The position numbers and the translations under genes were made by a program. A DNA stretch of 64,000 nt from Clostridia bacterium (GTDB lineage Bacteria; Bacillota; Clostridia; Oscillospirales; CAG-272): contig JAFVXH010000006.1 of NCBI GenBank assembly GCA_017501225.1, positions 882 through 64,881 of the forward strand. Direction: 5' to 3'. The notes below the pieces were generated by a model. It was not told the DNA's origin. It was given only the letters and a program-made list of their open reading frames with translations, and did not search any database. Below are positions 23,643 through 24,413 of the stretch, piece after piece (position 1 is the stretch's first letter; every line of letters starts with the position of its first letter).

Positions 23643-23729
23643 GCCGGTATGATGGAATTGGCAGACGTGCTGGACTCAAAATCCAGTGGTAGCGATACCG
23701 TGTCGGTTCGACCCCGACTACCGGCACCA
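23643..23729 (+). tRNA. tRNA-Leu(CAA)
   Basis: GCCGGTATGATGGAATTGGCAGACGTGCTGGACTCAAAATCCAGTGGTAGCGATACCGTGTCGGTTCGACCCCGACTACCGGCACCA; promoter TTGATT-17-TATAAT at 23602-23630; terminator 23729-23758. Confidence 0.98.
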
Positions 23730-23897
23730 AAAGCACTTGCAGATGCAAGTGCTTTTTTCTTTTTTCTATACCTTGATGAGGCATTTTCCATTGCAATGAT
23801 GCGAGCCGATGCTATCATTACCTTCAAGGTAGAATATCCATTATTGTTTTTCTTGCTTTTCTTTCGATTTTGTGGTATGATGAAATTGGTGATGACA

Positions 23898-24413
23898 ATG
23901 AAAGACAACAATGTAGGGGCGACCAGTGGTCGCCCGCAAAGAAAAAAGAACCGTTTGGAGCATTATGATTACAGCTCCTGTGGAGCATATTTTTTGACAA
24001 TCTGTACCGTGGATAGACGAAATTATTTCTGGGAAAAAGTTGGAGAGATGATAGATTGTCCGGAAGATGTTAAATTATCTCGATATGGCGACATTGTTAA
24101 TGAAGCAATTCAAAAGATCTCCTCTGTATATCCCGCATTATTGGTTGAAAATTATGTGATTATGCCAAATCATGTGCACTTGTTATTGAGGACTTGTGTC
24201 GATGAGTGCGGGCGACCACTGGTCGCCCCTACAATGTCACGGGTGGTGAATCAGTTGAAAGGATACGTTTCTAAACGAATAGGAAGCACGATTTGGCAGA
24301 AATCATTTCATGACCATATCATACGAAACATCAAGGATTATGAGGAACATATAAAATATATCTACGAAAATCCAATGCGCTGGTCTTATGATGAACTGTA
24401 TTCGGAGGAATAG
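23898..24413 (+). mobile_element. REP-associated tyrosine transposase (RAYT, IS200/Y1 HUH superfamily)
   Basis: RLEHYDYS..GAYFLTICT, YVIMPNHVHLL (HUH), WQKSFHDHIIR, YIYENP (catalytic Tyr). Confidence 0.92.
23912..24233. repeat. Perfect 27-bp inverted pair of GTAG-type REPs inside the RAYT ORF
   Basis: TGTAGGGGCGACCAGTGGTCGCCCGCA (23912-23938) and TGCGGGCGACCACTGGTCGCCCCTACA (24207-24233); each has a GGGCGACCA-n-TGGTCGCCC hairpin. Confidence 0.92.

Follow-up and report, generated by a model that had tools for sequence, protein, structure and literature searches.

The gene at the centre of this analysis, found in a window of 64,000 nucleotides (the whole stretch of DNA that was analysed), is probably a RAYT gene of the subclass 2.4 type that carries its cognate REP hairpins inside its own coding sequence, where they are kept as targets at the level of DNA. 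Two inverted arms lie within the open reading frame (23908-23938 and 24207-24237, 31 nt each and 30/31 complementary) and enclose a perfect inverted core of 27 nt (23912-23938 / 24207-24233). Inverted-repeat and ORF analysis bears out in every detail a preliminary description of this DNA, which had noted two perfectly inverted 27-bp GTAG-REPs 268 nt apart that encode VGATSGRP and GRPLVAPT. Each arm is composed of GTAG, an 8-bp G+C stem and a 3-nt loop (GTAGGGGCGACCAGTGGTCGCCC), and folds as single-stranded DNA with an energy of -10 kcal/mol (z about -4). The two REPs, here termed REP-N and REP-2, are the same 23-mer, a sequence with 0 occurrences in 100 shuffles of the window. The arms bracket the HUH codons but not the codon of the catalytic Tyr154, as had also been described (Table 1). 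REP-N starts 15 nt after the start codon, which is placed upstream of this element because a conserved P-x-RKKNRL follows the REP and no in-frame start codon is found between them.

The identification of the gene as a RAYT stands. The NCBIfam model NF047646 (REP_Tyr_transpos) matches the 171-aa protein with an E-value of 1e-18 and a score of 67.6 bits, below its cutoff of 80 bits, and the match to Pfam Y1_Tnp is weak (21.7 against a threshold of 23). The E. coli TnpA_REP (4ER8) is matched by the family profile (E 4e-9) and is also the top fold match of the AlphaFold model of the window protein (pLDDT 80; TM 0.57-0.59), followed by IS200/IS605 TnpA transposases. The protein combines a HUH motif with a catalytic Tyr in Y-I-x-x-N-P on a single-domain Y1 fold, and Y154, I155, N158 and P159 are invariant in alignment A1. 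There is one RAYT match in the whole assembly (1.74 Mb, 95.5% complete), and the gene is therefore single-copy, in keeping with the single or few copies per genome that separate RAYTs from IS200/IS605 elements. The latter are defined by multiple copies and by a tnpA gene lying between left- and right-end hairpins of the same strand; here the hairpins of a single-copy gene are inside it and on opposite strands. A genome-wide family of GTAG-footed REPs accompanies the gene. Extragenic REPs flanking the gene, the mark of a REPtron, were absent, with no REP match in its flanks within the window. Taken together, the gene can be regarded as RAYT-like. In its upstream region, a 16-nt stretch of the 5' part of the tRNA-Leu(CAA) gene (GGTATGATGGAATTGG, 23646-23661) recurs with 15/16 identity at 23874-23889, just before the RAYT start.

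Table 1. Coordinates of the RAYT-like gene, its REPs and associated features in the window.
Feature	Position	Strand	Remarks
tRNA-Leu(CAA) and terminator-like hairpin	23643..23756	+	upstream context of the gene; ARAGORN; inverted repeat I3 at 23729-23756
RAYT / TnpA_REP-like gene	23898..24413	+	ORF of 171 aa plus stop
REP-N (N-terminal REP, non-canonical position)	23913..23935	+	encodes VGATSGRP, residues 6-13
REP-1 site (decayed canonical upstream REP)	24039..24061	+	now encodes VGEMIDCP
HUH motif codons (His-Val-His, HVH)	24171..24179	+	H92 and H94 invariant in alignment A1; aligned with HUH strand of 4ER8
REP-2 (canonical post-HUH REP)	24210..24232	- (GTAG on minus)	encodes GRPLVAPT, residues 105-112
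Catalytic Tyr codon (Y154 of YIYENP)	24357..24359	+	outside the REP-bracketed segment; aligned to YIYINP of 4ER8

The in-gene elements are genuine REPs of the host genome, as the preliminary description had assumed. The pattern GTAGGGG[AC]G-N9-C[GT][CT]CC occurs 25 times in the genome, twice in the RAYT gene and 23 times elsewhere, and the 23 free copies share the design GTAGGGGCG-NNC-nnn-GNN-CGCCC, followed by GC or GT. Their stems are compensated, with GACC, GAAC/GTTC, GTGC and GATC variants, and many form convergent doublets 2 nt apart. Free copies with the GACC stem differ from the in-gene 23-mer in the loop. Several free copies lie under open frames of 200-600 codons in a crude open-frame test. 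Two free GACC-stem REPs (C6:97842-97884 and C10:42715-42757) may belong to a larger repeat unit, since about 20 nt of their 5' flank (aaacgt[a/g]acgtccatc[c/t]tat) is shared; the C6 copy is under an open frame of 608 codons near a contig end. In the window genome (G000) the most abundant free REPs are doublets with GAAC/GTTC stems (C4:66983-67030, C9:25022-25069, C17:49090-49137, C22:88381-88428 and others), stems unlike those of the in-gene REPs; the assembly contains no second RAYT as a possible partner of these doublets. The idea that free doublets are internally deleted, MITE-like copies of the REP-bracketed segment was rejected for the window genome, where the flanks of the 23 free REPs share only the GC or GT after the stem and nothing derived from the gene. 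Of eight other genomes checked, six have free REPs that match the in-gene variant and its state at a C/T site of the stem, and these often constitute the dominant family. The remaining two (G002 and G008) have no free copy of this variant, which is found only in the gene, and there both in-gene copies are perfect and identical.

The same arrangement recurs across a large family. The protein collection holds 1193 close homologs, and a library at 50% identity yields 18,484 representatives at E ≤ 0.001, with 158 at E ≤ 1e-30. From Clostridia MAGs (Oscillospiraceae, Acutalibacteraceae, Christensenellales and others), 80 loci with 48-74% identity were fetched. Measured upstream from the Trp codon of WQKSFHDH, nearly all of these have a plus-strand REP at about 255 nt and a minus-strand REP at exactly 84 nt. 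Both REPs are found at these two fixed codon positions in 61-62 of about 71 homologs, where they encode VGAxxxRP (residues 48-55, before the HUH motif) and GRxxxAPT (directly after the HUH strand); the minus-strand copy, equivalent to REP-2, is at -84 nt in 71 homolog genes. Some homolog loci also carry flanking REPs. The preliminary description had suggested looking in homologs for REP-derived peptides at the two positions occupied in the window. This expectation is confirmed in that REP peptides are conserved together with nucleotide-level palindromy, and the homologs do not show peptides conserved without it, which had been named as part of what would refute the idea. It fails in that only the post-HUH site (GRPxVAPT) is universal, and its universal partner is at residues 48-55 and not at the N-terminus.

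Decayed copies are seen in the window (REP-1) and in L037, L043 and L072. In the wider family, roughly one in two of the 50%-identity representatives has no recognisable REP peptides at these loops; in such REP-less relatives the loop is of similar length and ends in P-[TS]-[ILV]-S. A tree of 110 representatives at 50% identity resolves gain and loss of in-gene REPs poorly (113 usable columns, 6 starred branches, and 29 state changes with only 2 forced). Tandem REP-derived peptides or other inserts of 15-30 residues occur at the same two loops in P0136, P0132, P0153, L022, L014 and L019, and these loops act as repeated insertion sites. RAYT paralogs of one genome can have different in-gene REPs, as in L019 and L059 on one contig and L015 and L041 in one MAG. 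Another locus, L026, has a second REP pair 2.8 kb upstream of its RAYT gene (-3065 and -2894 nt relative to the WQK Trp codon). Its stems are those of the in-gene pair, as is the start-to-start spacing of 171 nt, and it probably represents a tandem paralog, whole or fragmentary. A close homolog that is otherwise intact (L006) has the conserved Lys of KQLKG replaced by an in-frame TAA (the codon before GIVSKQ), representing a pseudogene or a sequencing error.

The window gene itself departs from the family layout at its upstream site. In homologs the REP-1 site, at -255 nt from the WQK Trp codon, reads GTAGGGGCGATCATTGATCGCCC (VGAIIDRP) or variants of it; the window sequence GTTGGAGAGATGATAGATTGTCC is identical to the REP of its clade at 16/23 positions and its fold is gone (0 kcal/mol). 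An exact copy of the downstream REP, REP-N, is instead found 126 nt upstream of this site in codons 6-13, at -381 from the WQK Trp codon, a position occupied among the 80 loci only in L002. At the peptide level this copy is also seen in a few close homologs, and it occurs only in a small subclade. The place of the decayed REP-1 as the plus-strand member of the pair thus seems to have been filled by the N-terminal copy, and the window spacing is 268 nt, against the 148 nt of the family, because the plus-strand REP is the N-terminal copy and the canonical one has decayed. Two orders of events may account for this turnover: gain followed by decay, or decay followed by gain.

All three positions fall in loops or disordered parts of the model. 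The REP-N peptide belongs to the disordered N-terminus (pLDDT below 50), and the canonical upstream site to the loop that follows strand beta1; the downstream site is in the loop between the HUH strand (92-99) and the helix 113-128, where E. coli TnpA_REP is gapped in the HMMER alignment. The next helix aligns, in the sequence alignment to 4ER8, with the helix of E. coli TnpA_REP bearing R78 and K82, residues that contact the hairpin in the 4ER8 structure (PMC3479197).

Conservation at the two fixed sites extends to the nucleotides. Among 71 genes, the entropy at fourfold sites in the REP codons is 0.11 bit for V48, 0.30 for G49, 0.0 for A50, 0.0 for A110 and 0.11 for P111, in comparison with 1.6-2.0 bit at 23 other conserved codons; synonymous sites are frozen in the REP codons and saturated elsewhere in the gene. 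The middle residues vary only as codon-complementary pairs (T/G, I/D, S/A, C/A, P/G, R/A, N/V and H/V). Stems change by compensatory pairs and are Watson-Crick except for four isolated cells in about 1,100 and a recurrent G·T at stem pair 3, which lies on the GTAG strand whatever the orientation of the REP (29/66 REP-1 and 30/71 REP-2). For REP-2 the GTAG strand is the antisense strand, and the mRNA would have an A·C mismatch where this variant has G·T. It is thus on the strand of the REP itself that the structure is preserved, as in free REPs, which argues for an entity maintained at the level of DNA.

The two copies within a gene also change together. Their 23-mers differ at 1.39 positions on average, compared with 3.83 ± 0.17 for shuffled partners (62 genes; 0/10,000 shuffles as low), a test that ignores relatedness among the genes. 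The C/T site of the G·T pair is synonymous at both sites and its state agrees between copies in 59/61 genes, and at least nine distinct stem cores are common to both sites of a gene (GACC, GATC, GAGC, GTGC, GCCC, GCGC, GAAC, GCAC and GGCC, plus AGGAT). The pair is identical in 19/62 genes. In 22/62 the stems of the two sites differ, implying that a perfect long-range duplex is not what is being kept. Per base, loops disagree between copies 3.4 times as often as stems (0.169 against about 0.05). Additionally, in genes without the canonical plus-strand REP, another plus-strand REP is found 345-620 nt upstream of the WQK Trp codon in 5/9, the window gene being one of the five, against 3/60 in genes that keep it (Fisher p = 5e-4, again ignoring relatedness). 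This is a hint that a REP pair is needed in the gene, a lead from nine related genes and not a proof. The in-gene copies are live members of the REP population of the genome and not relics.

These observations suggest a model in which the encoded octapeptides would be passengers in loops of the protein, and DNA would be the entity that is kept, with a GTAG-footed hairpin on either strand that could be bound by the enzyme in single-stranded form. This mode of binding is proposed by analogy with the E. coli TnpA_REP, which binds its REP in this form. The in-gene REPs would be the enzyme's own putative recognition hairpins, maintained in cis, and enzyme and target would travel as one inseparable heritable unit, an internal REPtron. 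Selection for recognition, conversion between REP copies or a combination of the two could keep the copies uniform. Autoregulation of the gene by self-targeting, as suggested in the preliminary description, is possible. A stronger form of this proposal holds that the in-gene pair is a required cis element of a self-contained replicator, not a tolerated insertion, that its hairpins, one per DNA strand on either side of the HUH segment, are under selection for recognition by the enzyme that the pair helps to encode, and that a copy that is lost is replaced, as in the window; we put this forward tentatively, as a possibility with the balance against it. If it were true, the specificity of the enzyme and its target would co-evolve inside one 500-bp gene, and the gene would be the master copy of its REP family.

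Alternatively, the REPs may be passive passengers, old insertions in two tolerant surface loops that have no role and remain REP-like only through overwriting by conversion from a free copy or from the partner copy. This reading, which we consider rather unlikely, is close to that of the authors who described comparable insertions in tnpA_REP genes of subclass 2.4 and regarded them as probably harmless, a peripheral extension that hardly affects activity (PMC6006769). It agrees with the location of the sites in loops of the model, with the extra REPs found in tandem at the same loops in P0136, P0132, P0153 and L022, as at an insertion hot spot, and with the decayed copies (REP-1 of the window, L037, L043 and L072) and the many relatives without REPs. 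Indeed, the synonymous freeze and the concordance of the copies could both arise from repeated gene conversion without any benefit. However, conversion by itself would need to be so frequent that synonymous sites stay at 0-0.3 bit while the proteins diverge by more than 50%. Moreover, in G002 and G008 the in-gene copies are perfect and identical even though no free donor exists, and loss of the canonical plus-strand copy coincides with the presence of another one upstream.

Control at the level of mRNA is an improbable explanation. Here the hairpins, or a duplex between the two REPs, would throttle translation or create an RNase III site, such that the nuclease remains scarce, and in the window gene a hairpin at codon 6 would hinder initiation. 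The minimum-free-energy fold of 23880-24260 does pair the REPs as a 27-bp duplex (-129 kcal/mol, z -6.4), the concordance of the copies, including that at the synonymous C/T site (59/61), preserves such a duplex, and REP-N is only 15 nt past the start codon. However, the common G·T of the post-HUH REP becomes an A·C mismatch in the mRNA hairpin, placing the structure on the GTAG strand and not on the sense strand. The different stems in 22/62 genes would break the long duplex, loops are discordant 3.4 times as often as stems per base, and free REPs share the design without having any such role.

Inversion, excision or module swapping of the segment between the REPs had also been envisaged, and has found no support. 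A switch of this kind, in which the enzyme or host recombination inverts or deletes the HUH-encoding segment so that the gene is turned off or modules are exchanged, is very improbable. Inverted repeats of 27-31 nt can support inversion, and one RAYT pseudogene, L056 (SVSV01000041.1), has lost 23 nt (about -61 to -40 nt relative to the WQK Trp codon), with the deletion starting precisely at the CTAC foot of its post-HUH REP. However, the 61-62 homologs with both sites all have them in the same orientation with the segment intact, no inverted or deleted variant other than L056 is seen among the 80 loci, and an inverted segment would break the reading frame without yielding any obvious alternative product. 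The deletion in L056, which also has a 10-nt deletion in its HUH codons, may be a cleavage footprint next to the REP or an ordinary deletion.

Finally, conservation of VGAxxxRP and GRxxxAPT for protein function only, with DNA palindromy as a by-product, would fit the invariance of G105, R106, A110, P111 and T112 in alignment A1, the P-[TS]-[ILV]-S kept at the end of the same loop in REP-less relatives and the alignment of the following helix with the hairpin-contacting helix (R78, K82) of E. coli TnpA_REP (PMC3479197), but is rejected on the frozen synonymous third positions and on the variation of the three middle residues only in codon-complementary pairs, with the same 23-mers also occurring as free REPs.

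The proposed maintenance of cognate hairpins as DNA targets within the gene touches on two open questions, the long-term matching of RAYTs and REPs and the cellular role of RAYTs. A gut-Clostridia family with target hairpins in the enzyme's own frame offers a compact test system, in which recoding the two octapeptide-coding hairpins while leaving the protein unchanged would separate effects of the protein from those of the DNA.

Several known systems share parts of this arrangement. The E. coli TnpA_REP (yafM/rayT) REPtron also pairs a single-copy Y1 HUH enzyme with genome-wide GTAG-footed hairpins, and its structure 4ER8 is the best match of the window protein in both sequence and fold. The E. 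coli gene is flanked by REP/BIME elements (Nunvar 2010; Ton-Hoang 2012; structure 4ER8, Messing 2012, PMC3479197), and its product binds the hairpin and the 5' GTAG as single-stranded DNA (Messing 2012, PMC3479197). In contrast, the REPs in the window are inside the reading frame and none flank the gene, their stem is short (8 bp), perfect and without the bulge that E. coli recognition needs, and the window protein has no inhibitory C-terminal tail.

REPINs (Bertels and Rainey 2011, PMC3116915) resemble the in-gene arrangement in that two inverted REPs form one unit, and free doublets with spacers of 2-46 nt are present in the window genome and in related genomes. However, 148 nt of essential coding sequence (268 nt in the window) lie between the two in-gene REPs. 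A REPIN is a repeated unit with a short spacer, whereas the in-gene pair of the window occurs once with a coding spacer of 268 nt, and the genomes checked showed no mobilised version of the pair together with its spacer. Intragenic REPs and the Rickettsia palindromic elements, RPEs (Di Nocera et al. 2013, PMC3733652), are likewise short palindromes translated in frame, adding 8-30 residues in tolerant loops. Their hosts, however, are unrelated genes, often involved in DNA repair, and the sites are mostly non-conserved; in the present case the repeats sit in the gene for the very enzyme presumed to act on them, at sites conserved in a large family.

The closest parallel is provided by the in-frame REPs reported inside tnpA_REP genes of subclass 2.4 (Quentin, Siguier, Chandler and Fichant 2018, BMC Genomics 19:475, PMC6006769). 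This subclass has the motifs NH[IFV]H, WQ and YIxNNP and corresponds to RAYT group 4 of Bertels et al. 2017 (PMC6006769; PMC5581495). Its inserts keep the frame and as a rule occupy the beta3-alphaC loop, between HUH and Y, in a region highly variable in length and sequence, and its main hosts are Cyanobacteria and Bacteroidetes (PMC6006769). Judged by its motifs and not by the authors' HMM, the window gene fits this subclass: it has NHVH, WQK and YIYENP (homologs have YIDNNP, YIENNP, YIYENP and many YIxNNP), no conserved C-terminal extension and long GTAG-footed REPs, and REP-2 keeps the frame and sits between the HUH and Tyr motifs, in the loop following the HUH strand. A scattered distribution across phyla is a further shared feature. 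The gut Clostridia family differs in having two fixed sites, one of them before the HUH motif, always in opposite orientation, and in the frozen synonymous positions, compensatory stems and concerted change of these sites; the window gene differs further by its extra N-terminal site and its decayed canonical one. Searches of the literature on RAYTs, REPINs and Clostridia and for the REP-encoded peptides found no Clostridia-specific description, and the two fixed opposite sites, the synonymous freeze, the strand-specific G·T, the concerted change and the turnover in the window were not found in PMC6006769 or in the other literature searched. The layout, treated as unreported in the preliminary description, was thus already published in 2018 (PMC6006769). 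The twist specific to the window, decay of the canonical site and its replacement by an N-terminal copy with the same sequence as the downstream REP, is modest, and the gene is a well-documented new example of a known layout, to which it adds evidence of constraint on the DNA hairpins themselves.
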